Source of the DNA: an uncultured Clostridia bacterium
GTDB taxonomy: Bacteria > Bacillota > Clostridia > Oscillospirales > CAG-272
Length of the DNA stretch: 64,000 bases
Reading direction: 5' to 3'
Assembly (NCBI GenBank): GCA_904501985.1
Contig: CAJGCT010000003.1
Span: forward strand, 4,809 to 68,808
Positions 1-48,214 of the stretch are shown here, piece by piece. How positions within the stretch are numbered: position 1 is the stretch's first letter; each line of letters begins with the position of its first letter. Position numbers and translations under genes: made by a program. Below the pieces are notes generated by a model. That model worked only from the letters and a program-made list of their open reading frames with translations. It was not told the DNA's origin and ran no database searches.

Positions 1-805
1 CGATTTCGCACAGGGCGTATCTTGCAGGATGGGAAGCGCGCTCTTTTTCGGAGAGATTAGGCTTTATCTGCTCCCAGAATGCCTTTGCGGACGCCAACGA
101 ATGATTTCCGTCGCCCATAGCAAATAAAAGCGGCTTGTCACAGCTTTGTTCTGCCGATGCGGTATCATAAAGTGTGTCAAGAGCCGCGGAAATGCGGTCA
201 ATCTCAGATTTTGGGAGGAATTTTCCGAGAGCGTGACCGCCGTTTGCCATAAGCGTGAAGTTGTAGGCGGTATCGTATCCGGATGTATTGCCGATAAGCG
301 GCTCGATTACAGTACGCTTCGGGTCATCAATAAGTATCATGATATGAGGAAGCTCAACAGGTGCACCCTCGCGTATTTTTACACGTGGCGGAATACGGTC
401 AAGCACGGTGCCCTCTGTGGCGCGGACAAGAGATTTTGCACCCTTGGTGTAATCGTAGCACTCAAGGTCAATGGCACCTATAAGACCGCGGCGGATATTT
501 CCGTTATTCTGCGTGCGCTCAAGGTATATCATTGTGTTTTTGTGCTCACAAAATACATCTTTTTCGTATTTTCTCATGGTTTCATTGATGAGGGGAATGC
601 GTTTTTCGGCATCTTTAAGAAAAATTTCGGGGAGAGTTATGCGGAGCGTTGACGGTGCGTCACCAACGATGCTCTCCACGTTGTCCCAATATTCCGGCTC
701 TGACGTGTACTGATCGCAGGCTATGCACGAATAACGTCCCATGGCTTCCGCATCGTCTGCGAAGCTTGGGAGAAGTATATTTGCAGGGTAAAAGCAATGT
801 TTCAT
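1..805 (-). CDS. DUF1015-family protein, partial (C-terminus lies beyond the window start)
   Basis: Absent from the ORF track because it runs off the edge. Hand translation of the minus strand from the ATG (803-805) gives MKHCFYPANILLPSFADDAEAMGRYSCIACDQYTSEPEYWDNVESIVG..., an N-terminus I associate with DUF1015 proteins. AAGGAG RBS at 812-817. The + ORF 146-652 is its antisense shadow. Confidence 0.7.
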   Translation of the reverse strand, partial: MKHCFYPANILLPSFADDAEAMGRYSCIACDQYTSEPEYWDNVESIVGDAPSTLRITLPEIFLKDAEKRIPLINETMRKYEKDVFCEHKNTMIYLERTQNNGNIRRGLIGAIDLECYDYTKGAKSLVRATEGTVLDRIPPRVKIREGAPVELPHIMILIDDPKRTVIEPLIGNTSGYDTAYNFTLMANGGHALGKFLPKSEIDRISAALDTLYDTASAEQSCDKPLLFAMGDGNHSLASAKAFWEQIKPNLSEKERASHPARYALCEI

Positions 806-988
806 AGTGTACTCCTTAAGAGGAAATATTTTATAATAATATAATATCATATTTTTGCATATGAATCAAGATTTTTGAAAAAATATATTTCTTTCGAGAT
901 AATTTCTTCGCGTCATCATACAACCGTCACATTTGGGGTATATACTGTATATACACGATGGATAGTAGCCAAAAAGGAGGATAATACA

Positions 989-2437: not shown

Positions 2438-2620
2438 TAGAATAGGGAATACCAAAAGGAGAACGGACAGGTGCCGTTCTCCTTTTTGTATTTCAAAGCA
2501 TTTCAGAAAATAATAGAAGCGGCAAAATACCGTTATAATTATATTGTAACTGACATAATGTGCTAATATTTCCGTCATATTCTTGTCCCGTGTCACATAT
2601 ACATCCCACGAGGTGATTAT

Positions 2621-3763
2621 ATGAAAATCAAACGGTTTCTTTCCTTAATAATAATGGCGATAATATCTCTCGAAATCGCCGTGCCGCTTTCGGCGGCAGA
2701 TTACAACGCGCGCTCCTACATATTGATGGAAGCTTCCACCGGCACGGTGCTGCTTGAAGAGAATGCCGATGAAGCACTTCCGCCTGCTTCGGTTACAAAG
2801 ATAATGACGCTCCTTATTATAATGGAAGCAATTGATGACGGACGGCTATCCTGGGATGAGGCGGTGCAGACCTCGGAATATGCCGCGTCCATGGGCGGCT
2901 CGCAGGTGTTTCTTGAGCCAGGCGAGGAAATGCCTGTTTCGGAAATGGTAAAATGCGTGGTTATAGCAAGCGCAAACGACGCGGCGGTGGCTCTTGCGGA
3001 AAAGGTTGCAGGCAGTGAGGAAGCATTTGTCGGGATGATGAATGAACGCGCGGCGGAGCTTGGCATGACAAGCTCTGTGTTCAAAAATACCAACGGTCTT
3101 GACGATGACGTGGAGGGGCACGTAACAAGTGCCAGGGATATTGCCATTATGTCGCGCGAGCTTATCACAAAGCACCCCAAAATTCTCGAATATTCCTCCA
3201 TATGGATGGACAGTATTCGCAGCGGAGCTTTCGGTCTTACCAATACCAATCGCTTGGTGCGGTTTTACCGAGGCGCAAACGGACTTAAGACAGGCTCTAC
3301 CTCAAAAGCGAAATTCTGCATCTCCGCAACAGCGGAGCGCGACGGCATGCAGCTTATCGCTGTGGTCATGGCATCCCCCACAAGGGACGAGCGCAACGAA
3401 ACCGCAAAAAAACTGCTGGACTTCGGCTTCGCAGGCTGGGAAGTGGCAAATCTCACGCCCGAAGTAACGGCTTCACCGCTGAAGGTGGTCGGCGGAGTGT
3501 CAGACAGCGTACCTCTTGCCTGCAACGGGAGCAGTATACTGTTAAAGAAGGGTCAGGCGGCGAAGCTTACACAGGAAATATATCTTCCGGAATATGTAAG
3601 CGCGCCAATAAGTGCAGGTGACGAGGTGGGACGGATAGATTACTGTGCTGACGGCGAGGTTATAGCCACAGCACCCATAATTGCGGCAGAGGATGTGCCG
3701 AAGATAGGCTACGGCGGCATATTTATGCGTATTCTTCGAAAAATGCTGGTTGTGGAGGCGTAA
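2621..3763 (+). CDS. D-alanyl-D-alanine carboxypeptidase (PBP5/DacB-type, S11 family)
   Basis: Signal peptide, SVTKIM (SxxK), SAND (SxN-like) and KTGST (KTG) motifs, plus a C-terminal PBP5_C-like beta domain. Confidence 0.85.
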   Translation: MKIKRFLSLIIMAIISLEIAVPLSAADYNARSYILMEASTGTVLLEENADEALPPASVTKIMTLLIIMEAIDDGRLSWDEAVQTSEYAASMGGSQVFLEPGEEMPVSEMVKCVVIASANDAAVALAEKVAGSEEAFVGMMNERAAELGMTSSVFKNTNGLDDDVEGHVTSARDIAIMSRELITKHPKILEYSSIWMDSIRSGAFGLTNTNRLVRFYRGANGLKTGSTSKAKFCISATAERDGMQLIAVVMASPTRDERNETAKKLLDFGFAGWEVANLTPEVTASPLKVVGGVSDSVPLACNGSSILLKKGQAAKLTQEIYLPEYVSAPISAGDEVGRIDYCADGEVIATAPIIAAEDVPKIGYGGIFMRILRKMLVVEA

Positions 3764-4202: not shown

Positions 4203-7200
4203 ATGAGAAATCTCAAGAAGTTTCTTGCATTAGTGCTCGCTATGATTATGGTAGTAAGCGCTACTGCTATGGTTTCCGCTGATTTCACTGACGTTGCAGC
4301 TGACAGCAAGTATGCTGACGCTATCAACGACCTCGCAGTGAAGGGTATCGTTAAGGGTACCTCGGATACCACTTTTGGTCCTGAACAGGACGTTACCAGA
4401 TGGCAGATGGCTCTGTTTGTAGCAAGAGCTATCACCGGTGAAGTTGAGTCCGACGACGTTTGGGCTAACGGCATCGTTCCTTTTACCGATGTTACCTCTT
4501 ATAAGGGCGCTATCCAGTGCGCATACCTCAACGGTATTATCAACGGTACTTCCGCAACCACTTTCGCTCCCAACGACGGTATCACCTACGTTGCAGCTCT
4601 CAAGATGGCAGTTTGCGCACTTGGCTACGGCGAGGATCTTACCTGGCCTTGGGGCTACTACAACAAGGCAGCTGAACTCGGTCTCACCGCTAACATGGAT
4701 CTCGATGATCTTAACGTTGAGCTCAACAGAGCTGAGACCGCTCAGATCATCTACAACATGATCTATGCTGCTCCCGCTGACGGCGGCAAGACTTTTGCAG
4801 CTGAGAACTTCTCTATCGCTGCTCCCGAGAACACCACTCTCTTCGCTATCACCGCTACTCCTAAGCAGTACGGTTATACCGAGCTTGACGAGGCTGGTGA
4901 GGTTGTTGCAGCTTACAACTCCGCTTCCGATGTTGACGGCGAGTTTGTAGGTCTCCAGCAGCTCATCAACGGCGTTCCTGCGGGCAAGATGCTCTACGTT
5001 GCAGTAGAGACCATCGGTCTTACTGCTGAAAACGTTGAGGATTACTTCAACTATGCAGTTGAGCTCGTAAACTTTGACGAGGCTACTGGTGCATTCACCG
5101 GCTATGTAATGGGCGATGCTCCTAAGACCATCACTCATGCAGACGTTAAGTACGCTTCCAACAACGACAAGCTCGTTATTGACGGCGCTACTTACACCGG
5201 CGTTGACAGCTTCACCGGCGCTTCCCTCATCAATGAACTCGTTATCTACAACGGTACCGGCGTAGCTGAGGGTGCTAAGATGCTCCTCACCAACAAGGAT
5301 GGCGACATCATTGACTATGATGGCACAGTTATCGCTAAATTTGCATATGAGTCTTCCACCGGTGCTAAGTACTACTACGATGGCACCAGCAGCAAGGTTA
5401 TCACCGCTGCTAAGGCTCTCGATACGTACGGTATTTATGTAGAGGACGCTGAAAGCTCCGACTACATCAAGTACGAGACCATCACTTCCGCTAACAACGA
5501 GATCGAAGATAATCTTTACCTCAACGCATTTGAGCTTAAGATGTTCGACGACGACCGCGACGGCAAGTATGAGCGTGCTTACTATGCTCCTATCTACATG
5601 AGCGTATACTACACCTTCAAGGCTGAGATCGACAACAAGGAAGTTGACGCTGACGGTCTTGTATACAACGTATACGATGAGACTGTAGCAGCAGGCAATG
5701 TTACTTACACCAACGATGCTGCTAAGAAGGAAGGCGCTGTTTCTGTATTCACTTACAATAAGCAGCTCAACAAGATCAACGTAATCGACGTTCTCGAAAT
5801 GAAGACCGGTTATGTTGAGGAGATTGACTCCACTAAGTACGATGTTTATCGCGAAACCGGCGCAGTAAAGGTTACTGTTGACGGCGTAGCTTACGAACTC
5901 GGTTACTATGGAGAAGAGGCAAGCGGCAAGACCACTCAGGGCTCCGCTATGGGTGCAACCCTCATTCCTTACGATGAGATCAGCACCAACAAGTACGGTG
6001 TTGATGAAGTAGCTACCAGACCCTTCATCCAGTACATCGTTGACAGAGATACTTGGATCGACGATATCCAGCTCGACACCTACATCGGCTTCTACGCTTA
6101 CAACGGCGTTATCATCTACGCTTCCGAGCTTAAGATCGAAGACCTCTACGATTTCGTAGTTGTTGAAGATTTCGCAGATTACGACCTCGCAAAGATCTAC
6201 CTTGATCTTTGGGTAGGCGGCAAGCTTGAGGAAGAGGCTCTCGTTACCGAGCTTGACGGCAAGGAGCTTGAGGATCTTTCCACTTACAAGTTCTCCATGC
6301 TTCTCTCTGAGAAGGAATACTTCTACACCGGTAACATCTATGCAGCTCAGAAGGGCGAAGCTGGCTACGTTCTCGACGAGATCGTAACTCGCGACAACTT
6401 TGCTGGTGACCGCGAGGATGGTGGCTACGAGCTTATCGACGCTAAGATCGCTGCTGAAACTCTCACCCCTGACACGATCGTATTTGACGACGGTTCCACC
6501 AGAGGCGATGACAGAGCAAACAGAATCCGCACCTCCAATACCACTGTATTCTACTTCATCGAGAATGCAGAGTGCGACTGCGATACTCTTTGCACTAGAG
6601 GTTCTGAGGCAGGAGAGTGCGATTCTACCAACGCTGCAATGAAGAAAGTTTCCGTATTCGTTGGTCAGCCTGAAGAAGCAACCATCGTATTTGACGCGAA
6701 CACTGACATCTGGGTTGACGCTCTCGGTCACGGTACCGCTGAGACCAACGGCAGAGCTTCCGTAGTATTCGTAATCAACCCTGTTGAGCATTCCGGCTTC
6801 TTCGGTCTTACCGATGGTACTTATGTAATGACCAAGCTTACTACTAAGGCTACCAAGCTCGCTTCTGCTGAGAAGCTCGGTCTTCCTGAGGATTACAGCG
6901 GCAACTACTATATGTACAGCAATGCAGCTGTCAGCCTTGATGACGCTACTAAGATGACCATCTACTCTAAGGTAGAGCTTGATCGCAATCGCGTTTACAA
7001 GGTTGACGCAAATGGCGTTGTATATCTTAAGGACACCGATAACTTTGGCGCAGGTAATGTGCTTAACGATAGACCATTTGAACATCATCAGAAGTGGAAC
7101 ACCGCACCTGTTGTAAGCTTCATGGCATCTAACCGCAACTACGTTAAGTACGGTATCACCGATGTGAACAGTGATGTAACTACCACCACTGATACTAAGT

Positions 7201-38483: not shown

Positions 38484-38729
38484 GTGAAAAAACGAAGAAA
38501 CAAATCAAAACTTCGCCTTACGCCGACGGCACAGCGGCTTTTAATATGCTTGCTTGCCCCTATCGCGGCGACGGCACTGTATACGGCATTTTGCAGAGCA
38601 TCCCTTGATACATACGATGCTGCCAGACTCTATGGGATGCTTGGCTCCGAGATGGAGCACATACTTATGTCACTGCTGCTTGCGGTGGGTGGTGCGTTGG
38701 CACTTGATATTACGCTGAAGCGCGGTTAA
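38484..38729 (+). CDS. Hypothetical small membrane protein
   Basis: 81-aa ORF with a GTG start after GAAAGGAAACGG, a basic N-terminus and two hydrophobic helices. It is convergent with the helicase gene and overlaps its 3' end by 4 nt. Evidence is weak. Confidence 0.3.
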   Translation: MKKRRNKSKLRLTPTAQRLLICLLAPIAATALYTAFCRASLDTYDAARLYGMLGSEMEHILMSLLLAVGGALALDITLKRG

Positions 38730-40996
38730 TCTGTATATTCCGACAGTATCTGCGGAAGCCGCAACTTTATCTCATCCAAACGGAGCTTGTCTGCGGCGTA
38801 CTGACGCCGGAGCAGCTCTGCCGGAATGAAATCGTCGTATTTTTCAAATACGGGCATTTCGTTCGCGTTTACAAGCTTCGATTTGTCGATTCCCTCGCGG
38901 TCGATAATGTCGCAAAGTCCCTTTATAAGACCGTAGTCACTACCGGATTCCATTTTGAACATCATGAAATAGCAGCCCTCAAACTCAAGGTTTGTTATCT
39001 TGAAGCGTGCCGCATTCTGCATGATGAATTTGCGAAGCGTTCTGAAAGAGCGTGTGCCGAGCCATGGGAACAGACACCATGTATATCCCCCAAGGGGAAC
39101 AAGAGAATGAGAGAGCATTCCCGTGTTTCGGGCGAGGTTTCGCACGATTTCAAGGCGGTGTACGGCGTTTGGCTTAAGATACGGGTAGACGGTGTCCTCG
39201 AAGAGTATGCGGCGCATACGCTCAAGTATCTTTGTGTGTATCTCGCCAAAGTCCCCCGGCCAGGAGACCTCCATTTTGCCCTTTACCGCTTTTACATAAA
39301 TGAGCTTTCTCGGAATATCAAGCTCCTCAACCTCCCACACCCGGCCTGCAAGGGCAAATCTGTCACCCACAGGCGGCGGAGTTGTGATAGTTCCTATCTC
39401 ATCTGACTCGCACCTCACAGTATAATCCTCGCTGTCCTTGAAGACGGCATAGAATTTAAAGCTGTTTATAAGACGCTCGCCTTTAAGACCTACTATAAGC
39501 CCCTTTTCCTCGGTAAGCTCCAGAAAATCGTTTTGAAGCATACTCATAAGCAGTGTGCGGTAGTCGTCTTTGCTTATATTCTTGAAGGCAGGAAGCGAGA
39601 GAATGCGCTCTGCAAGTTTTTTGGGTGTAAGCTCACCGGAAGAAGCAAGAACCGACAGCGTCTGCTGAAACGCAAGGCTGAACGGCAGTTTTTTTGTGTA
39701 TGGAGGTTCGATGAATTTTTCTTCAATATATAGCTGAACTATGGCTATTGCCCGAAGAAAGCTCCACGGGATGAGCTGTGGTAGAGGCGCATTTGGCAGT
39801 GGATTCTCCTCACGGAATACCATCATCATTTCCGGCGGTGTGTCACGTCTGCCTGAGCGACCGAGACGTTGGAGAAAGCTTGAAACGGAGTTTGGAGCAT
39901 CATTTTGTATGATACGCTCAAGCTTACCGATATCAATGCCAAGCTCCATTGTTACCGTAGCGCAGGTAACGCATTTTTCCTCGCTGTTTTTCATCTTTGA
40001 TTCGGCTTCCTCTCGTATGGAAGCGGAAAGATTGCCGTGGTGTATGAGGAAATTGTCCCGTTCATGGCGGTTGTCGGCGATTTGACGCATGGTTGCCGTA
40101 ACATATTCCGTCTCCTCACGGGAGTTTGAGAAAATTATTGCTTTTTTGTTTTTTGCACAGTCGTAAATATACTCATATCCGGGGTCTATTTCAACTTTGC
40201 CGCGCGATGGCATTTCAGATACAGATGTGTCCGAATCCACCGACGGTGTATCGCGGCTTTGGTCGAGATTATCGCCCTGGATGAAGAAATGCTCCATGCC
40301 CAGCCGCCATTTTGTCTTGCCCTCAATTATTTCAGGTACGACAGTTTCCACATCCGTGCCGCCCCCAAGCCATTCTGCGGCAAGGGATGCATCACCCACG
40401 GTGGCGGAAAGTCCTATGCGGCGCGGCGTGTGTCCGATAAGTCTCGCCATACGCACTAACTGACATATTATCTGATTTCCACGGTCCGTGCCTGTCAGGG
40501 TGTGTATCTCGTCAATTACCACATACCGCAGATCGCCAAAAAGCCGCACTATATCATTTGAGCGGTTCATGAGCATACTTTCAAGGGATTCGGGTGTTAT
40601 CTGCAGGATTCCCTGCGGATTTTTTAGAAGCTTTGCCTTGTGTGACTGTGCCACATCGCCGTGCCAATGGAATACGGGGATTCCGGTCATATCGAGAAGC
40701 TCATCAAGGCGTGAAAATTGGTCGTTTATAAGGCTTTTGAGAGGTGCGATGTAAAGTGCACCGATACTGCTTGGCGGAGCTTCGTACATATCTGAAATTA
40801 TAGGGAAGAATGCCGCTTCTGTTTTACCTGAGGCGGTGGAGGACGTGATGAGCAGGTTTTTGTCCGTTTCAAACAGCACCCTGGCCGCCGCAAGCTGAAC
40901 TGCTCTCAGCTCCTGCCATCCGTTTCGGTATATGAAATCCTGAATGAACGGCGAAAATCGGTAGAAAATTTCGTTGTCTGTCATATCGGTCTCCAT
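38726..40996 (-). CDS. sngC: Lhr-like DEAD/DEAH-box SF2 helicase (Shango SngC-like; BrxHI-like)
   Basis: Motif I SSTASGKTEAAF, Ia YIAPLKSL, II VIDEIHTL, III GLSATV, VI QRLGRSGRR, plus a C-terminal extension of about 350 aa. It is the third gene of a tightly packed operon. Confidence 0.7.
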   Translation of the reverse strand: METDMTDNEIFYRFSPFIQDFIYRNGWQELRAVQLAAARVLFETDKNLLITSSTASGKTEAAFFPIISDMYEAPPSSIGALYIAPLKSLINDQFSRLDELLDMTGIPVFHWHGDVAQSHKAKLLKNPQGILQITPESLESMLMNRSNDIVRLFGDLRYVVIDEIHTLTGTDRGNQIICQLVRMARLIGHTPRRIGLSATVGDASLAAEWLGGGTDVETVVPEIIEGKTKWRLGMEHFFIQGDNLDQSRDTPSVDSDTSVSEMPSRGKVEIDPGYEYIYDCAKNKKAIIFSNSREETEYVTATMRQIADNRHERDNFLIHHGNLSASIREEAESKMKNSEEKCVTCATVTMELGIDIGKLERIIQNDAPNSVSSFLQRLGRSGRRDTPPEMMMVFREENPLPNAPLPQLIPWSFLRAIAIVQLYIEEKFIEPPYTKKLPFSLAFQQTLSVLASSGELTPKKLAERILSLPAFKNISKDDYRTLLMSMLQNDFLELTEEKGLIVGLKGERLINSFKFYAVFKDSEDYTVRCESDEIGTITTPPPVGDRFALAGRVWEVEELDIPRKLIYVKAVKGKMEVSWPGDFGEIHTKILERMRRILFEDTVYPYLKPNAVHRLEIVRNLARNTGMLSHSLVPLGGYTWCLFPWLGTRSFRTLRKFIMQNAARFKITNLEFEGCYFMMFKMESGSDYGLIKGLCDIIDREGIDKSKLVNANEMPVFEKYDDFIPAELLRRQYAADKLRLDEIKLRLPQILSEYTD

Positions 40997-40999
40997 GCC

Positions 41000-42367
41000 T
41001 TACAGTTCAATATCCGCCGCAGAGAAGTCCGTTATTATCTGCGGTCTGTCCTGTGTGTCGATAAGGTCGTTCTCGTCATCCTCGCCGTGGGACAGCGCAA
41101 TTGTGCCGCTTCCCACTACATCTAAAAAGGTTGTGTCGGGATTCTGAAGAAGAATGTTCAAAACCGTGATATAGTCTCTGATTATTTCGCGCGGGGTTAT
41201 CATAGTGTCAGCGCCTGCACGTTCAAGACATATCTTCAAAAATGTCAGCATATCCTCGTTTGTAACACGCGGCTCCCATGAATAGTTCTGGGCATGAAGT
41301 CCTGTTATACGCGCGACGAGAGCGTAAAGCTCATCATCCGAAAGCCTGCGCAGACGGATGACAGGACCGATAAGGTTTTTGAAGCCGTCCTTCTGAAACT
41401 GTCCGTCGGAGAGCCTGCTTCGAAGAGCCTCGTAGGAAAAGAGACCGCGTCTGGTGTCTTCAAGAAACTGCGGTGTGCCGCCGAAGATGAGAGCCAAGCC
41501 CTCGGCTTTGCCTTGAAGGGTATCATTAAACATGGACAACAGCTTTTCATAGTTATTCTCGCGTGAAATGCGGTTGGCTATCTTATAAAGATTTACGCAC
41601 TCATCAATGAAAACCACAAAGCCGCGGTAGCCTATCTTTCTGAAAAATACCGCAAGCAGTTTTATATACTCGTACCAATTATCGTCGTCGATTATTCCGC
41701 CAACGGAAATCCCCATGGCATTTCTTGCCTCGGTTTTGGTGGAATATTCGCCTCTGAGCCAACGGATGCAGGCGGATTTTTTATCCTCGTCTCCATCCAT
41801 ATATGCCTTATAATATGTGGTAAGAACCGTGGCAAAATCAAAGCCGCCGATCTGAGCTTCAAGCTCGCGGGTCTGTGAGTATATACGCGAGGTAAGCTCA
41901 CGCATAAAGGTGTCCGAGCCGATGGCGTGACCCTCGGCGGCGACTGAGGACTGAAGATCGGAGAGCCATTTGCCGATTATCTGCATGAGCGCACCGCCGT
42001 CAGGCGAGGATTTTGATGCCAGATTCCGTATAAGCTCGCGGTAGGTGGCAACTCCCGTTCCCTTAGCACCGCAGATTCGCCTCTCGGGAGAGAGGTCGGC
42101 ATCGGCGGTTATAAATCCGCGCTCCAGCGAAAATCCGCGAACAAGCTGAATAAGGAAGCTCTTTCCGCTTCCGTATTTTCCTATAACAAAGCGCATGGAT
42201 GCGCCGCCGTCGTTGACAGCTTCAAGGTCAGAAAGAAGTGCCTCTATCTCCTCGTTTCGTCCGATTGCAATGTACGGAGCACCCATACGCGGGACAACTC
42301 CTGCGGCGACTGAGGACAGAAGACCTGTGAGTATTCTTTTGGGTATCTTTCTTGCTATTTCAGCCAT
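41000..42367 (-). CDS. sngB: P-loop ATPase, DUF2791/BrxD-like (Shango SngB-like)
   Basis: Walker A IGKYGSGKSFL and Walker B GFVVFIDECV. Size is 455 aa. It overlaps the upstream gene by 13 nt and ends 3 nt before the helicase start. Confidence 0.65.
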   Translation of the reverse strand: MAEIARKIPKRILTGLLSSVAAGVVPRMGAPYIAIGRNEEIEALLSDLEAVNDGGASMRFVIGKYGSGKSFLIQLVRGFSLERGFITADADLSPERRICGAKGTGVATYRELIRNLASKSSPDGGALMQIIGKWLSDLQSSVAAEGHAIGSDTFMRELTSRIYSQTRELEAQIGGFDFATVLTTYYKAYMDGDEDKKSACIRWLRGEYSTKTEARNAMGISVGGIIDDDNWYEYIKLLAVFFRKIGYRGFVVFIDECVNLYKIANRISRENNYEKLLSMFNDTLQGKAEGLALIFGGTPQFLEDTRRGLFSYEALRSRLSDGQFQKDGFKNLIGPVIRLRRLSDDELYALVARITGLHAQNYSWEPRVTNEDMLTFLKICLERAGADTMITPREIIRDYITVLNILLQNPDTTFLDVVGSGTIALSHGEDDENDLIDTQDRPQIITDFSAADIEL

Positions 42368-44103
42368 TTTCTTATATCTCCTTCATAATCGGAAATAAGC
42401 CTGTACCCGTCGCCGTCAGATTCAATAACGCTGTCGCCTATAATATCAAAGGCGAGCTCGTTTATCTTGTCGGCGAGGGCATCCGGAAGTATGCCAAGCT
42501 GTGCAGACACATCGCTAAGAGCGTTGCTCTTGCCGTCACACAGTAAAGAGAGCACTTTTTTTGACGGCTCGTCAACAGCACCCATAAACGTCGCAAACTC
42601 ATCCTCGCCGTCCGCAGATGTGGGAGAGGTGTCGGGTGAATAAGAGAAATCATCATCAGCCGCACTTGGTATGGGCACGTTTTCGGTGATTTTTTCATCC
42701 TCGTCCGCTTCCTCAAAGGCTGCGGTGAGTATATCGGTGGTGTTCCACGATTTTTTCTCTATTTCAAGGGCGTTTTCGAGGGATAGCGATGTGGTGACAG
42801 GCTCGTAGAGCTTGTCATAGGCATTTTTAATGGAATCAGCCTCGGCGTTGTCGGAATTACGCTTCTTTTTCGGTACGGGCAGGTATTTGTCGAAGTATTC
42901 GTCAATGCAAGCCTTAAGCTTGTCTGTGAGCGATTCAACTTTCAGCCTGGATTTGATTCCAAGTGCCATTCGTATGCGATTTTCGCTGTATTTGATGATA
43001 TCGGTCACAGCAAATCTGAACTTCGGCGAGCGGGTATATGATATATATTCCACAGCGATTGAACGCTTCATATTGTATACGCACAGTGCGCCGTCGTATG
43101 CGGTGCGCTCCATACGGAATTCTTTTGCAAGAGTGTTGTCCTTTTCTGACAGTATTTCGCGGTACGCTTTCTCAAATGCGGCTTTTATATGCTTTGCAAA
43201 GAGAGCCACATTTTCAGCTGTAACATATCGGCTTTTGCGCCAATCGTATGTTGAAGAATATGAAAGAAGTCCTGCGGCAGTGCTTCCGTTTTCTTCGTCA
43301 ATGTAAAATTCCTTGAAATTCGCTGCCGCCACAACATCACCAAGGATAGGCTCAAGCTCTTTTGTGGGACAGGGAAGAGCATGGACAAGGCAGTAATCGC
43401 ACAGCCAATCGCACATATAGCTGTCAAGCCTGCGGTGCTCGGTGCGGTAATTAAGCCATATGGCGCAGAGCAGTGAAAGCCCGTCGGTGGGCGTTATAAG
43501 ATCGGGGGCGTTTATTATTTCATAAATATAGAGAAGTATATAGCAAAAATCGGTTTTCAGATATACGCCGCGGCGGACATTGTCACGCCACCAGAGATAC
43601 CATTTTAACTGCGCGTATTTAAGCTGTGAATACTGCGGAACATATGAAAAGAAAGAAACATGATCGCATGGGGTGGATGTGCGCGACCAAAGACGCTTTA
43701 CATCTGTACTGAAATTTTCGTAAAAGTTGAATCGCGAATTCCATGCCGACACTTCTACGCGTCGTATAAGTCCGCCTTTCGGCTCGTATATGAGATATGG
43801 GTCAAGAGGCTTCGAGCGGTATTCCTGCGCTCTTGTTTTCATGGAAAGCTCATTCAGCTTTCGTGCGGTATCGGCAGATGAGTGCTCACGGTGATATTCC
43901 GAGTCGTTTTTTGGAGGTATAGCCGAGCTTTTATCGGGGGTGATATCATCGGAGCCTACGGACAATTCCACTGTGTCGGTGTTTGAACGGCGAGCGGTTG
44001 GCACAACGGGACGTTTTTTCGGCAAAAGGGACTCAAGGTCCCAAAAATTGTCAATGTCACTTAGGTTTTTAGGCTTATCGCTCATACTCTCACCCCCGAT
44101 CAT
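42355..44103 (-). CDS. sngA: TerB_N / TerB_C domain protein (Shango SngA-like)
   Basis: TerB_N-like block FFSYVPQYSQLKYAQLKWYLWWRDNVRRGVYLKTDFCYILLYIYEIIN, an acidic linker, and a TerB_C-like tail LPDALADKINELAFDIIGDSVIESDGDGYRLISDYEGDIRKWLK. An alternative start at ATG 44085 has the better RBS (GGGGGTGA). Confidence 0.65.
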   Translation of the reverse strand: MIGGESMSDKPKNLSDIDNFWDLESLLPKKRPVVPTARRSNTDTVELSVGSDDITPDKSSAIPPKNDSEYHREHSSADTARKLNELSMKTRAQEYRSKPLDPYLIYEPKGGLIRRVEVSAWNSRFNFYENFSTDVKRLWSRTSTPCDHVSFFSYVPQYSQLKYAQLKWYLWWRDNVRRGVYLKTDFCYILLYIYEIINAPDLITPTDGLSLLCAIWLNYRTEHRRLDSYMCDWLCDYCLVHALPCPTKELEPILGDVVAAANFKEFYIDEENGSTAAGLLSYSSTYDWRKSRYVTAENVALFAKHIKAAFEKAYREILSEKDNTLAKEFRMERTAYDGALCVYNMKRSIAVEYISYTRSPKFRFAVTDIIKYSENRIRMALGIKSRLKVESLTDKLKACIDEYFDKYLPVPKKKRNSDNAEADSIKNAYDKLYEPVTTSLSLENALEIEKKSWNTTDILTAAFEEADEDEKITENVPIPSAADDDFSYSPDTSPTSADGEDEFATFMGAVDEPSKKVLSLLCDGKSNALSDVSAQLGILPDALADKINELAFDIIGDSVIESDGDGYRLISDYEGDIRKWLK

Positions 44104-44123
44104 AGCATTTTGGTTATTATATT

Positions 44124-44152
44124 ATTTTAACATATAATTGCCACAATGTCAA
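44124..44152 (-). promoter_or_regulatory. Putative sigma-A promoter of the TerB-ATPase-helicase operon
   Basis: The minus strand reads TTGACA (44152-44147), a 17-nt spacer, then TAAAAT (44129-44124). Confidence 0.55.
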
Positions 44153-44236
44153 TTATATTATCGCGAACTTGCGGAGATTTTGCGGTGATTTGTTCATTTC
44201 GTGGAATGGAGCGTTATTCTGTATGCGTACAACGAC

Positions 44237-44271
44237 AAAAAATCCGCATTCTTGCGAATGCGGATTTTTTT
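44237..44271. terminator. Bidirectional hairpin terminator separating the R-M cassette from the TerB operon
   Basis: ATCCGCATTC-TTGC-GAATGCGGAT 10-bp perfect stem flanked by an A-run and a T-run. Confidence 0.8.
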
Positions 44272-44275
44272 GTGT

Positions 44276-44327
44276 AAGGGCTATAAAAAAGATGTTTTTG
44301 CTAAAGTGCTTACGGGATTTGAACTTC
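44276..44327 (+). repeat. Left inverted-repeat block (IR-A 44276-44293, IR-B 44309-44327) bracketing the R-M cassette
   Basis: AAGGGCTATAAAAAAGAT and CTTACGGGATTTGAACTTC are the exact reverse complements of 47912-47929 and 47807-47825. Confidence 0.85.
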
Positions 44328-44343
44328 ACTATATTTACTTGAG

Positions 44344-45459
44344 TTAAGCAATTTCTTTTTGAAGTAGATTCTGATAATGCCTTTCAATAGCGATTATCAT
44401 TTCAATTCTTTTTTCGAGCTTTTCATAGTTTGTTACAATGTCATCCTGTTCCTTTTTCGACGGAATATCGATTTTGGTATGCTCAAAAAATCCTGTCATA
44501 TTCCAAGTACCATTGTCTGAACTGGATGAATATAGAAGAAATTCTGCTTTATATTGAATAGACAACCACTTTAAATTGATTTCATATGGTGAGTCATTTT
44601 TTACATATAAAATATATGCATCATCATTCAGTGTGTACCGACCTTTAGGTAAATATCTGACCGTTCCTGCCTTACCTTTTCTTGTAACCAACAACCCTTC
44701 TTTATCGTTAAATCGTGGTGCTTTAGTTGCGTCATCCAGCATTACAACGGAATTCTCTTTTGCGGTCGCTCCTGTAAGCAACAAATATCGTTCTCCGTCT
44801 GATTTTAAACGTTGATAGTTTTTTTCTTCCGTTAGATTGGATGTTCCGCTTATGTAGTCAATGCACTTTGTGATTTCAACATCTCGTCCTTGATATTCTT
44901 GATATTCCGCTATCAACTCTTTAGACAAAACTGAAAGATATTTTTCCTTAATAGATGTCAAAGCATCAAGTTTAATTTTGATATTCTGTATGGTTGACAT
45001 AATGTTGCATTGTACATCATACCTGGGTAAATCGAATTCCTCAGAATAAACTTGCTCCAGTGATAAAGTCTTAGAACCATCACTTACACTAAGATTTTTG
45101 TAGAAATTCTGAAAGAACAAAGCAAAGTATGGTAGACAAATTTTTTGGGTAGCATCTTTCTTTACTGTAATAAATCCAGCATGATGATTAAGCGCAAACC
45201 TTTCGCCAGTTTTGTAAGTCATACATCCTGCACTACCATCCAAGCTGATAATAATGCCTTCTCCAGAAAAAACGGTTATTGTTTCACCTTTTTTCGTTTT
45301 TGCTGATACAGATATTCTTCTTTCAGTTGAAGTATGGTCTTTATTTCCACCATAAAGAGGAACCAACTCATCTTTGTTTTGCAATGATCCATATATTGCT
45401 TCATCTGTAAGAGCATAATTGCCTTTTTGAATTTCATTAAACACATCAAGAAAGTTCAT
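44344..45459 (-). CDS. Restriction-modification specificity (S) subunit with two target-recognition domains (BcgI-B-like)
   Basis: 371 aa with two TRD-like halves (..VPLYGGN.. / ..LLLTGAT..), each followed by a coiled-coil conserved region (LDALTSIKEKYLSVLSKELI; EKLEKRIEMIIAIERHYQNLLQKEI). It overlaps the upstream methylase gene by 14 nt. Confidence 0.75.
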   Translation of the reverse strand: MNFLDVFNEIQKGNYALTDEAIYGSLQNKDELVPLYGGNKDHTSTERRISVSAKTKKGETITVFSGEGIIISLDGSAGCMTYKTGERFALNHHAGFITVKKDATQKICLPYFALFFQNFYKNLSVSDGSKTLSLEQVYSEEFDLPRYDVQCNIMSTIQNIKIKLDALTSIKEKYLSVLSKELIAEYQEYQGRDVEITKCIDYISGTSNLTEEKNYQRLKSDGERYLLLTGATAKENSVVMLDDATKAPRFNDKEGLLVTRKGKAGTVRYLPKGRYTLNDDAYILYVKNDSPYEINLKWLSIQYKAEFLLYSSSSDNGTWNMTGFFEHTKIDIPSKKEQDDIVTNYEKLEKRIEMIIAIERHYQNLLQKEIA

Positions 45460-47479
45460 CTAAAAACCTCCTAACTTCTGCATCCAATGATGAGATTTCT
45501 TTGTTAAAATCCGCTTCGCTGATATAATGAGGTGAGTAAGGACGCAAATAATATTCGGGAAGAAGCGTAATGTAATTGTCGCTCGTGATTTTGTCTATTG
45601 GGATATTTCCGCCCTTTCTTGCGATTTGTTCGAATCCTTTTTCGTCAATCCATTTTGTTGAAGATCCGCTGTCATCAAAAGTAAGCCAACGCTTTTCTAA
45701 TATTCCGGGCATTTCTACTCCGTCTGTGCTAACCCAACCGGAAATTTCATCGTGCATCCATCCATTTCGATTGTTTCTTAATTTCGTAGGGAAACGCTTG
45801 TCGGAATTTGCTAATCCGTCGTTATCGATGATGTACATCCATATAGGCTTAGTTTGCTTCTTTGTAACCTTGTTACTACGCTTTTTCAAAAACAATGCAT
45901 ATGTTTTTTCTTTTGTGTAAGGCGCAAATGCAAACTTGGGCAAAGAAACGATTGCGTAAATTTCACATTTTTCGAGAATTTCATTACGCAATTTTTTGTA
46001 AGAGGGATTTTCTAATACACCATCAGGTGTAATGATACAAGCCTTTCCACCAACCTTAAGCAAGTCAATAACCTTACAAATGAACGCAATTTCTGTTCTG
46101 TTTGTGGAAATCGCCTCCGTGTTTGCTTTTATCGTACCGCTACCATATGGGGGATTGGTGATTACGTATTGATAGGTTTTATCTAATACGCTTTTTCCTT
46201 GGCGAGTAGGTTTTAGAGTATTGTCCGAATACATGTGTGTATGCCCGTCGCCAACCAAAAACATATTTAAGCGAGTTCTTGAGATATTCTCATCCCTTAC
46301 ATCGATTCCGTAAAAACACTGTTTGGACAAAAATTCTCTTGCTTCATCCGTCAATGTGCCGCTTTTTTCATAATTGTTGTAGAGGACTTTGAAGCTCTCG
46401 GTCAAAAATCCACCAGTTCCACAAGCAGGGTCGATAATAGAAAACGTTTGCTCATCATTAAATGTTTCTTCGTCTTGAAGTAGCAACTTAGCAAAAATAT
46501 GAGTGTAATGTCTACGGGTAAAGTATTCACCAAAATCCTTTTTCTCTTTGGATGAAGCAAACATTTCATATACTGCACCAAACAAATCGAATCCCGTACC
46601 GTGTAAAGGCTTCATTGAATCAATAATGCTGTATATTTGTTTGACATCTTCAACACTTACCAAAGGCTTGTTTTTTCCATCACCGCTAATGGCAACACGA
46701 ACAACTTCCATTACATTTTTGAATTCTTTGAATGTTGTTTCATCTTCTAAACGACTAATATATCCACTTAGATTATTTTTTACTTTCTCGGCAATTTCAT
46801 CGTTACACGAAGACCAATAAACCTTGGAAGCATCCTTTGTTCCATCAATATCTTCTTTTTCCTCGAAATATTCAAGTGCTACAAATCCGACAGTGAAGTC
46901 TATCTTCTGAACATTATCCTTGAAATTGATACCGCGATACACACCTGCAAGTTCCCAAAGCTTTTTATTGAAGATTGCTTCAGAAATAGTAGAAATAGAA
47001 TCTACATTAGTGTTTATTGCATCAAGATCAGGGTTCGCAGTTAGCTTGTTCTTAATCAAGCGGTAGATATCAATAGTTTGAAACTCTCTTATTGGATTTC
47101 CATTCAAAGTCAATTGCTTTAAAGTTTTTGCGTTGTAGAAATAGGTAGTTTTGCAATTTGTAACTATAAAATATGGCAAACCCAATTTAGGAGCTTTAAT
47201 CTTTCCTTGTTTCAAAGCATCTTTCCAATCTTTATCATCAACCTTGCAATCATCTTTTGCTTCTGCATAAGCAACGAGATTCTTGATGTATTGATCGTCA
47301 TTTGTTCCGTCATATTCGAATTCTGAAATTAAAAGATCGGGACGCTTTGATCCTGTATACTTTGAAAAAGTGGTATCATTAACAATTTGGCGAAATGGTA
47401 TGCTTAACTGTGCTACAAGCACCTCGTTGATAAGACGGCTTACTGAAAGTGCCTCTTTTTTCTTTGTTCCTTTAGCCAT
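45446..47479 (-). CDS. Fused restriction endonuclease / N6-adenine DNA methyltransferase (type IIB BcgI-A-like or type IIG-like)
   Basis: The N-terminus has a PD-(D/E)xK-like motif (RPDLLISEF...AYAEAKDD). It is followed by gamma-class MTase motif I IIDPACGTGGFL and motif IV ITNPPYG. Start set at ATG 47479 (AGGAG RBS); the track ORF starts at 47521. Confidence 0.7.
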   Translation of the reverse strand: MAKGTKKKEALSVSRLINEVLVAQLSIPFRQIVNDTTFSKYTGSKRPDLLISEFEYDGTNDDQYIKNLVAYAEAKDDCKVDDKDWKDALKQGKIKAPKLGLPYFIVTNCKTTYFYNAKTLKQLTLNGNPIREFQTIDIYRLIKNKLTANPDLDAINTNVDSISTISEAIFNKKLWELAGVYRGINFKDNVQKIDFTVGFVALEYFEEKEDIDGTKDASKVYWSSCNDEIAEKVKNNLSGYISRLEDETTFKEFKNVMEVVRVAISGDGKNKPLVSVEDVKQIYSIIDSMKPLHGTGFDLFGAVYEMFASSKEKKDFGEYFTRRHYTHIFAKLLLQDEETFNDEQTFSIIDPACGTGGFLTESFKVLYNNYEKSGTLTDEAREFLSKQCFYGIDVRDENISRTRLNMFLVGDGHTHMYSDNTLKPTRQGKSVLDKTYQYVITNPPYGSGTIKANTEAISTNRTEIAFICKVIDLLKVGGKACIITPDGVLENPSYKKLRNEILEKCEIYAIVSLPKFAFAPYTKEKTYALFLKKRSNKVTKKQTKPIWMYIIDNDGLANSDKRFPTKLRNNRNGWMHDEISGWVSTDGVEMPGILEKRWLTFDDSGSSTKWIDEKGFEQIARKGGNIPIDKITSDNYITLLPEYYLRPYSPHYISEADFNKEISSLDAEVRRFLDELS

Positions 47480-47660
47480 TTTTCTTTTCTCCTTTTTCTT
47501 TATCCAAATGTTCACTGACATATCTTTCTGCTGCTTTGTTGAATAAGTCTGCCATACTTATATTATCATCAATCAACAATTTCCGTAGTTGATTGTGAAG
47601 CACGGTAGGCATACGAAATTGCACTTGTTTTGTTCTATCACTTTTGGTCGCCTGTTTCAA
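47472..47660 (-). CDS. Ribbon-helix-helix (CopG/Arc-like) small DNA-binding protein, first gene of the R-M operon
   Basis: 62 aa. VQFRMPTVLHNQLRKLLIDDNISMADLFNKAAERYV fits a beta-strand + helix A + helix B pattern. TTG start 47660 follows AGGAGG, and the stop overlaps the methylase start (ATGGCTAA). Confidence 0.55.
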   Translation of the reverse strand: MKQATKSDRTKQVQFRMPTVLHNQLRKLLIDDNISMADLFNKAAERYVSEHLDKEKGEKKNG

Positions 47661-47681
47661 AATGCCATCCTCCTGTCACAA

Positions 47682-47723
47682 ATGATATCATTCTATCACA
47701 ATACCTTGATATAAGGATATCAT
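47682..47723 (-). promoter_or_regulatory. Promoter/operator region of the R-M operon: extended -10 (TGATAGAAT) overlapped by the palindrome ATGATATCAT, with a second GATATCAT 25 nt upstream
   Basis: ATGATATCAT at 47682-47691, the -10 TAGAAT (minus strand) at 47690-47695, and GATATCAT at 47716-47723. Confidence 0.4.
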
Positions 47724-47806
47724 ATAAGGGAGATTTTGTCAACAATTTTCAACAAAAAAAGTGCATAGGTTTTTCCTATGCACAATAGAGTAGTATTCAA
47801 TTTCGG

Positions 47807-47929
47807 GAAGTTCAAATCCCGTAAGTGTTTAATATCTTTTTCTCGTGACTATGCGAGCCAAGGGCGGAAAAAACAAAAAAGCCTTGAAAAATCAAGGCTT
47901 TCCGCGGCTATATCTTTTTTATAGCCCTT
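47807..47929 (+). repeat. Right inverted-repeat block (IR-B' 47807-47825, IR-A' 47912-47929) between the R-M cassette and tRNA-Gln
   Basis: GAAGTTCAAATCCCGTAAG contains a tRNA T-arm-like CGGGAAGTTCAAATCCCG. ATCTTTTTTATAGCCCTT lies 3 nt from the tRNA-Gln 3' end. A hairpin GCCTTGA-AAAA-TCAAGGC (47881-47898) lies between the two repeats. Confidence 0.85.
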
Positions 47930-47932
47930 TTT

Positions 47933-48006
47933 TGGCTGGGGATGAGGGGTTCGAACCCCCACAAACAGAGTCAGAGTCTGTCGTGCTACCGTTACACAAA
48001 TCCCCA
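47933..48006 (-). tRNA. tRNA-Gln (anticodon CTG)
   Basis: The minus strand reads TGGGGATTTGTGTAACGGTAGCACGACAGACTCTGACTCTGTTTGTGGGGGTTCGAACCCCTCATCCCCAGCCA. Acceptor TGGGGAT/ATCCCCA, anticodon loop CTCTGAC, T-arm GGGGG-TTCGAAC-CCCTC. Confidence 0.85.
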
Positions 48007-48144
48007 ACGGTATCTTTTCCACGGACAATATTATATCACAACAAAATAGGTTTGTCAATAGGTTTTTTAAAAAAAATAAAGTTTTTGCGCAGGTAATTTT
48101 TACAAGTGCGCCAAAATAAATTTCAACTTTTTCCGCTCTCGCTG

Positions 48145-48173
48145 TTGACATGGCGCGTTTTGCGTGATATAAT
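48145..48173 (+). promoter_or_regulatory. Consensus sigma-A promoter of the SCIFF operon
   Basis: TTGACA at 48145-48150, a 17-nt spacer, then TATAAT at 48168-48173. Confidence 0.7.
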
Positions 48174-48214
48174 ATAAATAATAATGCAAAATCACATCAC
48201 AAGGAGTACATAAA

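Follow-up and report, generated by a model that had tools for sequence, protein, structure and literature searches.

The stretch of DNA analysed here, a window of 64,000 nucleotides from an uncultured Clostridia bacterium, holds a restriction-modification (R-M) cassette that lies next to a tRNA-Gln gene and is bracketed by two pairs of inverted repeats. The locus raises the question of what these repeats are and how the cassette came to lie between them. The repeats themselves are present as the sequence-only reading of the window had described them. Repeat A (AAGGGCTATAAAAAAGAT) and repeat B (CTTACGGGATTTGAACTTC) at the far side of the cassette have exact reverse complements, A' and B', at the tRNA side, and the spacers between A and B measure 15 nt on the left and 86 nt on the right. 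A' starts 3 nt beyond the CCA end of tRNA-Gln(ctg), as follows from the placement of this gene on the minus strand (Table 1). The match of B stretches to 27 nt at 89% identity. These repeats are far beyond chance: A and B occur twice each in the window, even when 3 mismatches are allowed, none of 100 dinucleotide shuffles yielded two matches for the A/B motifs, and B is confined to these two places in the 1.66-Mb genome. The likeness of the 19-mer B to a tRNA T-arm, also noted earlier, holds loosely: CGGGA/TCCCG make a 5-bp stem, and the loop is the 8-nt AGTTCAAA instead of the canonical 7-nt T-loop. The T-loop/T-stem of a tRNA-Leu(cag) in a related MAG (L053) matches GTTCAAATCCCGT at every position.

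Two congeneric genomes, G008 and G031, retain the empty site, in which tRNA-Gln-CCA leads directly into its terminator with the sequence CCAGCC-A7-TCCGC. These sites connect window position 44272 with 47928, the window having a net 3,662 bp extra, and the flanks in G008 are 94-98% identical to the window. Both repeat pairs fall within the 3.66-kb insert, whose G+C content is 34-39% as opposed to 44-51% outside, and neither end is found at the empty sites. The sequence-only reading had proposed this alignment, and it had described the repeats as an inverted duplication of the sequence 3' of tRNA-Gln. The latter description is wrong, because A', the 86-nt spacer and B' are missing from the empty sites and therefore belong to the inserted DNA rather than to the native flank of the tRNA; that flank is the terminator hairpin, now 3.66 kb away. 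The repeats are thus absent where the cassette is absent, nor are they dispersed repeats without a link to the locus. They are the termini of the cassette, and the insertion and its boundaries are demonstrated; the earlier suggestion of an insertion footprint survives only insofar as the repeats are the element's own ends.

Positions 44273-47932, together with one shared CA, constitute a discrete integrative cassette without a recombinase, inserted exactly where the CCA end of tRNA-Gln would otherwise meet its own terminator. Target duplication is not reproducible between insertions, since the junctions of L100, L131 and L093 are mismatched despite the 7-bp repeat in the window, and CA is seen at the tRNA-side junction in 16/16 cases and at the far junction in 24/26. 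The cassette and its 72-kb contig contain no serine or tyrosine recombinase domain (PF00239 and PF00589 were searched); in line with the earlier remark that the window lacks a recombinase, all matches are on other contigs.

The displaced native terminator, which immediately follows tRNA-Gln-CCA in G008 and G031, now ends the cassette operon, and the cassette supplies its own terminator for the tRNA. The cargo is predicted to be a BcgI-like (type IIB / IIG + S) R-M system, as judged by Pfam domains: a fused endonuclease-methylase with a gamma-class N6 methylase domain and, as a distinct protein, an S subunit carrying two recognition domains. The 62-aa ribbon-helix-helix-like ORF, for which a Pfam search gave no match, is probably the controller of the operon; a small gene is likewise placed in L093, L184 and G029. 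The cassette promoter region is kept in G029:C43, L093 and L184. In the tRNA-side end, B within the inverted copy of the L-end folds as the hairpin CGGGA-AGTTCAAA-TCCCG, and the alignment pairs 122-137 are retained in 15/15 R-ends. The neighbouring small hairpin appears in the R-ends as the variants CTCAC/GTGAG and CTCGC/GCGAG, and the A' arm also makes the hairpin GGCTATA-AAAAAGA-TATAGCC (47906-47926), in which the stem pair U-A is changed to G-C in four copies.

Table 1. Features of the cassette locus in the window, from the far end to the tRNA-Gln promoter
Feature	Position	Strand	Evidence or remark
Native bidirectional intrinsic terminator of tRNA-Gln	44237..44270	-	Perfect 15-bp arms; terminator-like on the minus strand
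Far ('L') end, fixed 54-nt unit	44271..44324	-	Includes B (44309-44327) and the 18-bp arm A (44276-44293); on the tRNA-sense strand GTTCAAATCCCGTAAG...GCAAAAACATCT...TTTTATAGCCCTT-ACA-CA
Candidate crossover dinucleotide CA of the L-end	44271-44272		Proposed
3-nt tip of the L-end	44273-44275
Specificity (S) subunit gene, 371 aa	44344..45459	-	Pfam Methylase_S, two stretches
Fused restriction-methylase gene, BcgI-like / type IIG-like, 691 aa	45446..47521	-	Pfam N6_Mtase, Eco57I, MmeI_Mtase
Ribbon-helix-helix-like ORF, 62 aa	47472..47660	-	Translation; stop overlaps R-M start
Cassette promoter	47714..47742	-	TTGACA-17-TATCCT with TG, among GATATC palindromes
Second element-borne terminator T2	47761..47783	-	Insulates the cassette promoter; conserved GTGCATAGG...CCTATGCAC in R-ends
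Initial ~40 nt of the L-end as a shortened, inverted copy within the tRNA-side end	47803..47839	-	AAAAAGATATTAAACA and B' (47807-47825)
Small conserved hairpin	47842..47857	-	CTCGC-ATAGTC-(A)CGAG; one compensatory pair
Element-borne replacement terminator T1 for tRNA-Gln	47876..47903	-	Kept in 15/15 aligned R-ends
Outer tRNA-side terminus	47906..47932	-	Tip AAA (47930-47932) and the 18-bp arm A' (47912-47929)
tRNA-Gln(ctg), CCA encoded	47933..48006	-	ARAGORN; Rfam tRNA, 59 bits
Candidate crossover dinucleotide CA of tRNA-Gln	47933-47934		Proposed
Consensus promoter of tRNA-Gln, outside the element	48030..48058	-	12/12 match

The same two ends are found at more than 40 gut Clostridia loci, and these termini bracket many different cargoes behind many tRNAs. 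MAGs of gut Clostridia yielded 20 tRNA-side ends and 30 far ends. The tRNA-side ends with the hairpin begin with CCA, 3 nt and the arm in 16/16 cases. Upstream of them lie tRNA-Gln, Pro, Tyr, Ser, Leu(tag) and Met or a copy of the tRNA-Met 3' end; two more target sites are tRNA-Leu(cag) (L053) and tRNA-Ala, the latter with B-less variant ends, and human-gut contigs carry further such ends behind tRNA-Ala, Met and Gln. In all, the targets are eight tRNA species or a copy of a tRNA 3' end, and the 3-nt tip tracks the element subtype, not the tRNA. The earlier suggestion that the repeats are ends of a non-autonomous mobile cassette targeting tRNA is supported by this family and can be sharpened to the CCA end of many tRNA genes.

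The far end keeps its length of 54 nt in 27/30 copies and terminates in CACA, after which comes the displaced terminator; CA and then a strong hairpin follow it in 24/26 copies. The window and all closed copies have the arm-3-CA-3-arm geometry around the putative crossover position. End identity between copies is approximately 90%, and mostly at or above this value, whereas the R-M proteins, including that of the window against those of other family cassettes, are only 21-30% identical. The cargo varies among R-M systems, other defence genes and toxin genes, and cargo of 97% identity occurs with differing end subtypes. In all of the ~20 copies it is oriented with the tRNA-side end upstream and the far end downstream, there are one to two copies per genome, and none of the 43 family loci has a recombinase gene inside the cassette. 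Some units possess the far end only ('S' units), and direct arrays are seen in L079 and L113.

Sequence alignment suggests where the mobility may come from. L184 has a terminus that can be aligned with the far end of the window's cassette, and ~105 nt from it lie two full-length large serine recombinases plus a third, fragmentary one. The alignment between the far end and the recombinase-side terminus of L184 and L188-L193 spans 54 nt without gaps, with 34/54 identical positions and the blocks GTTCAAATC, GCAAAAACATCT and CACA at the same offsets in both termini; for its non-anchor part, the observed identity was reached in 22 of 20,000 shuffles. This comparison covers the recombinase-side terminus of the element and shows the 54-nt far end to be homologous to it; the element, with serine-recombinase genes next to this terminus, is widespread in the gut. 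At five further distinct insertion sites (L188-L192; L193 shares its flank with L189), the recombinase-side terminus is directly followed by different terminators. One of these sites has an empty counterpart (L194), which reads tRNA-Pro(ggg)-GGACCA / AAAAAGTCC..., and one copy of the recombinase-bearing element is inserted precisely at the tRNA-Pro CCA. In L184, the recombinase-side terminus abuts a cassette's tRNA-side end as ...CTTCA-CA-TCA-AAGGGC, which is the predicted joint geometry. The genome that contains the window has two large serine recombinases of its own, but they share just 26-32% identity with those of the model element and have no matching terminus next to them. Neither viral contigs nor JGI metagenome contigs yielded the joined-end palindrome.

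We consider it fairly likely that the locus represents a hitchhiking integrative cassette, moved in trans by the serine recombinase of such an element, the crossover falling on the CA of CCA. We infer the responsible enzyme, whereas the insertion itself is demonstrated. Serine-integrase sites are composed of half-sites on either side of a central dinucleotide (PMC3783163). The cassette would travel as a circle, the joined ends of which would form a quasi-palindromic attachment site with the layout of 18-bp arm, 3 nt, CA, 3 nt and 18-bp arm. A large serine recombinase given in trans by an autonomous element would then swap strands at the CA common with the tRNA CCA, and since this CA is non-palindromic, it would set the orientation of the insertion. 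Homologous recombination in the conserved ends may also reshuffle cargo between cassettes.

Against this trans-recombinase reading stand the absence of a recombinase from the cassette, its contig and the 43 family loci, the low identity of the genome's own recombinases to those of the model element, and the joined-end palindrome missing from the contigs searched. The 'S' units and the L079 and L113 arrays also count against it, as they suit a single-site scheme of an integron-like or tyrosine-integrase system equally or better. There, the 54-nt far end would be the sole recombination site, cassettes would stack behind the tRNA, and the tRNA-side inverted copy would be a terminator/insulator module and not a recombination arm. 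Such a scheme accommodates the far ends in direct arrays (1.4 kb apart in L079, ~0.3 kb in L113) and the 'S' units with a far end but no A/B on the tRNA side; moreover, tRNA 3' ends are classical tyrosine-integrase sites, and in L132 the tRNA-Met fragment has a tyrosine integrase immediately upstream. We nevertheless regard it as unlikely. Both ends arrived together in the one case with an empty site, the tRNA-side arm stands at a fixed spacing from CCA (16/16), and the reconstructed targets disagree at 2-4 positions with the 8 nt that separate the arms, a mismatch that would be unfavourable for strand exchange by a tyrosine recombinase. In addition, attC-type R/L boxes are absent, and the homologous terminus adjoins serine, not tyrosine, recombinase genes.

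Somewhat less probable still is a transposon-like mobile insertion cassette, in which A and A' would be terminal inverted repeats for a DDE transposase acting in trans and the 7-bp TTTTTTG found at either side a target-site duplication. The terminal inverted repeat of 18 bp is perfect, the 7-bp direct repeat matches a single copy at the empty site, and R-M units with inverted repeats and 8-bp duplications but without a transposase are known, one of them a type IIG + S unit of N. gonorrhoeae (PMC2853133). However, the direct repeat is accounted for by the A-rich tip of the element meeting the A-run of the target, and a matching duplication is absent in the other closed copies. Outside the arms the two tips differ, with AAA/TCA... 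at one end and invariably xCAC at the other, insertion keeps strictly to one orientation and to CCA, copies number only one to two per genome, and the far end is homologous to the end of a serine-recombinase element. The genome holds one cassette and one related module, and no IS with these ends was seen, although DDE transposases were not searched systematically.

It is very improbable that the cassette has no dedicated mobility and that its ends are conserved 'anchors', spread by transformation or conjugation and homologous recombination with flanking DNA. The ends are indeed much more conserved than the cargo, identical cargo occurs with different end subtypes, and the long direct duplications of the terminator-containing flank in L083 and L079 resemble a Campbell-type crossover; yet the same ends join the same nucleotide of at least seven tRNA species, junctions that homologous recombination could not create de novo, and neither end is present at the empty site. 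Finally, the option in the sequence-only reading of an invertible segment, in which recombination across the two perfect inverted repeat pairs 3.5 kb apart flips the R-M cassette for phase variation, is hardly credible, as cargo orientation relative to the asymmetric ends is uniform in all closed copies and open ends examined, ~20 together, so that nothing suggests inversion, the promoter is internal to the segment, so that a flip would leave expression unswitched, and no invertase is nearby.

It is conceivable, and we propose only tentatively, that gut Clostridia maintain a general 'tRNA-end cassette platform'. This would comprise serine-recombinase elements and recombinase-less defence, toxin or RNA cassettes with a common 54-nt T-arm-like terminus, inserting at the CCA of essentially any tRNA gene, each with a replacement terminator. 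Such a platform would amount to a hitherto undescribed, functionally SCC- or integron-like form of gene exchange, and the T-arm-like motif with its inverted spare copy would aid generic recognition of tRNA ends instead of one tRNA sequence.

Several known systems resemble this arrangement in part. SCC and pseudo-SCC of staphylococci are cargo cassettes, R-M systems included, that large serine recombinases integrate in a fixed orientation at the 3' end of one conserved gene, rlmH (orfX), with 15-bp direct repeats. Imperfect inverted repeats mark their extremities, they stack in tandem, and some members lack a recombinase and rely on recombinases in trans. SCC works alike, but the cassette family of the window uses the CCA ends of many tRNA genes, shares CA alone and resides in gut Clostridia; the likeness is functional, and no sequence relationship is expected. 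CIMEs, whose flanks are direct repeats of the end of a tRNA or other gene, go back to tyrosine-integrase ICEs. In these points they differ from the cassette family of the window, which is similarly non-autonomous, keeps the attachment sites of an autonomous relative and undergoes tandem accretion with it (compare L184 and L048). With integron cassettes and CALINs it has in common that small promoter-to-terminator units, varied in content, stack at one anchor and carry no recombinase of their own. It differs from them in that the palindrome halves are at opposite ends of the integrated unit, which has its own promoters and terminators, and no attC fold or GTTRRRY core is visible in the window cassette.

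Among serine-recombinase elements, we know of no described specificity of large serine recombinases for tRNA ends in general, and the dinucleotide shared by Tn4451 is GA. The clostridial Tn4451/TnpX and Tn5397/TndX (serine integrases are reviewed in PMC3783163) are like the cassette family of the window in their short shared dinucleotide, their lack of target duplication and their quasi-palindromic joined ends, as predicted for the cassettes, and the recombinase genes beside one terminus recur in the autonomous element (L184, L188-L193); the window cassette, in contrast, has no recombinase, and its shared dinucleotide is the CA within CCA. The transposon-like R-M units of Furuta, Abe & Kobayashi (2010) are single cases at non-tRNA sites with clean 8-bp target duplications (PMC2853133). 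Like them, the window cassette has no mobility gene and its inverted repeats are missing from the empty site of a relative, and one of those units shares its type IIG + S (BcgI-like) cargo. Unlike them, it lacks a reproducible duplication and is always at the CCA end of a tRNA, its ends form a large family that also carries non-R-M cargo, and one of these ends is homologous to that of a serine-recombinase element.

The flanks of the restriction-modification (R-M) cassette beside tRNA-Gln were searched in 60 related genomes. In the closest congener (G008), whose flanks are 94-98% identical to those of the window, and in a further relative (G031), tRNA-Gln is joined directly to its own terminator, with window position 44272 abutting 47928. 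Therefore, the window has 3,662 extra bases between the two. At this empty site, a comparison the sequence-only reading had proposed, the tRNA end ...CCCCAGCCA is immediately followed by AAAAAATCCGCATTC-GCAA-GAATGCGGATTTTTT, the hairpin found at 44237-44270 in the window. Both inverted repeat pairs of that reading, A/A' and B/B', are present as it described, and A' does start 3 nt past the CCA of tRNA-Gln. However, its interpretation as an inverted duplication of the tRNA flank is wrong, because the DNA now 3' of tRNA-Gln is insert and not native flank: the extra DNA contains all of A, B, B', the 86-nt spacer and A'. Both repeat pairs are terminal sequences of an insert, whose G+C content is 34-39% versus 44-51% outside. 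Each motif occurs twice in the window even when three mismatches are allowed (0/100 shuffles), and B has no further copy in the 1.66-Mb genome.

Features of the cassette and its borders, listed from tRNA-Gln to the native terminator (minus strand = tRNA-sense), followed by the repeat pairs
Feature	Position	Strand	Remarks
tRNA-Gln(ctg)	47933-48006	minus	encoded CCA
3-nt tip AAA, then 18-bp arm		minus	directly past CCA of tRNA-Gln
Arm hairpin GGCTATA-AAAAAGA-TATAGCC		minus	formed by the 18-bp arm
Strong terminator	47876-47903	minus	now ends the tRNA transcript
Small hairpin		minus	between the strong terminator and the inverted far-end copy
Inverted, shortened far-end copy	47803-47839	minus	includes B' folded as T-arm-like hairpin
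Second terminator	47761-47783	minus	
Promoter, near-consensus		minus	amid GATATC palindromes, 3' of second terminator
Ribbon-helix-helix-like gene		minus	62 aa; first cassette gene
Fused restriction-methylase		minus	691 aa; second cassette gene
S subunit		minus	371 aa; last cassette gene
Far end GTTCAAATCCCGTAAG...GCAAAAACATCT...TTTTATAGCCCTT-ACA-CA		minus	then native terminator
Hairpin of the empty site	44237-44270		
Repeat pair A / A'	44276-44293 / 47912-47929		18 nt, perfect
Repeat pair B / B'	44309-44327 / 47807-47825		19 nt, perfect; 27 nt at 89%

The cassette lies between tRNA-Gln and a TerB_N/TerB_C-BrxC/D-like gene group (38726-44103: TerB_N/TerB_C protein, then BrxC/D-like ATPase, 756-aa ORF). 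Here tRNA-Gln is upstream of the TerB (Shango) gene in the same direction, unlike in two relatives (G018:C25, L041 11923-12646; G014:C13, L044), where the tRNA-Gln segment is divergent to it; this points to the tRNA-Gln/Shango junction having been locally inverted or rearranged within the genus. Larger tRNA-Gln/Shango-operon intervals in G013 and G001 were rejected as related elements, since they hold ordinary metabolic genes.

Scanning species-representative genomes with the B core yielded the same ends, 20 on the tRNA side and 30 far ends, in gut and rumen Clostridia MAGs. The insertion and its exact boundaries are established, and so is the existence of a family. Many other 17-mer matches in other phyla were rejected as chance matches in coding DNA, as was the single IMG/VR match, inside a coding frame. 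Five loci (L062, L099, L101, L155, L162) bear another conserved non-coding block with the same 17-mer (…TATTCTTACTTTTGGTTGTTCGTCTATCTTGCACTATRC-CTTACGGGATTTGAACTTA…), a block found in Christensenellales/Clostridia MAGs that has no relation to the A motif. The tRNA-side end begins with CCA + 3 nt + AAGGGC in all 16 copies having the hairpin, and sits behind tRNA-Gln, Pro, Tyr, Ser, Leu(tag) and Met, as well as behind a tRNA-Met 3'-end copy that another small element left. The 3-nt tips (AAA, TCA, AAC, AGT, AAT, AAG) track the element subtype and not the tRNA, indicating that the tip belongs to the element. In 27 of 30 copies, the far end has a fixed length of 54 nt, counted from GTTCAAATC to CACA; in 24/26 it is followed by CA, and likewise in 24/26 by a strong terminator hairpin. 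At seven loci, both ends are present in inverted orientation, 0.5-3.8 kb apart.

Over ~150 nt, most tRNA-side ends share 90% identity or more, while R-M proteins of other family cassettes are only 21-30% identical to those of the window. Further cargoes comprise AAA_21 + RloB, an SMC-like ATPase, DUF4379 + nuclease domain, DUF2513, barnase/barstar, an HD protein, DUF2089 and unknowns, and near-identical cargo is found with differing end subtypes. When the two serine and six tyrosine recombinases of the genome were compared by tblastn with 307 kb of family loci, only three tyrosine integrases matched, all outside cassettes. None of the cassettes encodes a recombinase, and with respect to serine and tyrosine recombinases the cassette is non-autonomous. 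No A- or B-like motif stands beside those eight recombinase genes. A phage or plasmid origin was rejected, since searches of 50,697 phage records and 72,556 plasmids gave no match to the tRNA-side end.

The tRNA-side module is more widespread and more varied than the subtype of the window. In human-gut contigs, a metagenome scan with the hairpin added more ends, located behind tRNA-Ala, Met and Gln; in human-gut and other metagenome contigs (L176-L186), GGGC(T/G)ATAAAAAAGATAT(A/C)GCC follows CCA + 3 nt (tips TCA, TAA, TAC) with no B motif within 200 nt. A hairpin-plus-terminator module of the same build lies behind tRNA-Ser ahead of an ArdA-like gene (L198), and similar ones lie behind tRNA-Gln in G018 and G017, where ordinary genes come next and no recombinase is present, and behind tRNA-Met in contig C7 of the genome that the window comes from (1-3105, outside the window). 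There, tRNA-Leu(taa)-tRNA-Met(cat) is followed by CCA|ATTA-GTGCGACCAAAAAAGATATCGCAC, a terminator, AAAAAGATAT...GGAGGGATTTGAACTACCGACCTCC, and genes for small cysteine-rich and acidic proteins up to the contig end; by its sequence, it resembles another, related element end within that genome.

The constant feature of the junctions is CA, present at both and 3 nt from each 18-bp arm, which predicts a joined-end site arm-3-CA-3-arm. With CA as the sole shared core, the two junctions of the window and the empty site are reproduced to the base. A matching arm/short-core anatomy has been published for serine-integrase sites (PMC3783163), whereas tyrosine recombinases seem to fit poorly, since 2-4 of the 8 nt that separate the arms do not match the targets. 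The best-supported explanation, which we consider somewhat probable, is that a large serine recombinase acting in trans moves the cassette. It would cross over at the CA of CCA, giving a predicted circle joint ...ATAGCCCTTACA-CA-AAAAAGGGCTAT... and an excised chromosome CCAGCC-A7-TCCGC. Neither IMG/VR nor the JGI metagenome contigs contained the joined-end palindrome, whether as circle or as tandem joint.

A candidate source of such a recombinase is seen in L184, a contig in which the tRNA-side end of a cassette abuts ...GTGTTCAAATCAAGACAGCGAAAACGCAAAAACATCTCTATTGTCCTGTCTTCACA instead of a tRNA, ~105 nt downstream of a trio of adjacent serine-recombinase genes; two of these are full-length and encode Resolvase + Recombinase + zinc-ribbon domains. 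This terminus aligns ungapped with the far end of the window over the same 54 nt (34/54 identical); for the non-anchor part, 22 of 20,000 shuffles reached the identity. The same terminus was found at five further distinct insertion sites (six contigs, L193 having the flank of L189), ending at CACA with different terminators directly after. One such site has an empty counterpart at tRNA-Pro(ggg), ...GGACCA|AAAAAGTCCTGAAAC..., and together with the terminus homology this implies that the recombinase-bearing element shares the target point and carries a homologous terminus beside its recombinase genes. The element was characterised from this terminus; its left end is a model prediction, in which tRNA-CCA + 3 nt would be followed by a hairpin arm, an imperfect inverted repeat of ...TGTCCTGTCTT. 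The L184-type recombinase is very common (8,000 relatives scored; one 90% cluster has 2,128 members). Proteins P0002, P0009, P0067-P0073 and P0075 are variants, 95-97% identical, of the widespread 545-aa serine recombinase. They differ in their C-terminal extensions (648-832 aa), one of which includes a DNA methylase domain; from these sequences, it looks as if the tail of the gene changes with the insertion site.

The main rival is an integron-like single-site scheme, with which the direct far-end arrays in L079 and L113 agree; we hold it to be unlikely. A DDE-type cassette comes next and is more doubtful still: the 7-bp direct repeat TTTTTTG in the window resembles a target duplication, but none is reproduced in L100, L131 and L093, and the repeat is explained by the A-rich tip of the element meeting the A-run before the terminator. 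Inversion of the segment, also raised by the sequence-only reading, is not supported, as cargo orientation relative to the ends is invariant in the roughly 20 family copies examined.

Several loci carry additional structure at the tRNA end. Between terminator and far-end unit behind tRNA-Met, a ~200-nt region (L079, rc 2150-2390; L083 1000-1235; L113; L048 930-1125) adopts a fold of three nested helices, made up of triplicated 9-10-nt repeats (TATATCATCA / TGATGATATA), with small tetraloop hairpins between them and a T-arm-like hairpin (B motif) at the 3' end. L048 has TATGGAAT / ATTCCATA instead, giving 11 pairs with a compensatory change. The region has no Rfam match; it may represent a structured RNA or, alternatively, phased sites for protein binding. 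Rfam searches (E-value mode, 44100-48200; gathering mode, eight family loci) returned only tRNAs and sub-threshold noise, with no HDV-like or other ribozyme past CCA. Tiny gene-less segments (0.23-0.5 kb) behind tRNA-Met or tRNA-Leu(cag) (L083 675-975; L053, rc 5970-6310; L045; L056; L093 4393-4627) begin past the tRNA terminator with an inverted tRNA 3'-end copy and finish with a direct copy including CCA, after which cassettes insert. In L083 and L079, long stretches of the flank with the terminator are directly duplicated. The 0.5-kb 'empty' element of L093 was rejected as a landing pad, being a decayed cassette (small gene + S-gene tail). In another gut contig, the tRNA-Ser/Pro cluster is taken up by a small element that encodes a tyrosine integrase, an HTH_17 protein and a Viral_Rep protein (L208 6010-8334); this element and the occupant in L209 have unrelated ends and were rejected as relatives, and the cluster is a hotspot common to unrelated integrating elements.

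An odd repeat pair has become a testable mobility system, in which defence and R-M genes are exchanged among gut Clostridia in compact, precisely bounded units without a recombinase of their own. If the serine-recombinase link is true, these recombinases would use the CCA ends of many tRNA genes as targets, an uncommon property among serine integrases that makes them potential tools; it would also explain integrase-less, tRNA-proximal defence 'hotspots' and provide exact metagenome signatures, CCA + 3 nt + AAGGGCTATAAAAAAGAT and GTTCAAATC...CACA (54 nt). No description of the family was found in the literature searched, a weak sign that it is new. Among published systems, the 'transposon-like' R-M unit of Furuta et al. 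2010 (PMC2853133) comes closest, and the nearest functional analogue is a recombinase-less SCC-type cassette.
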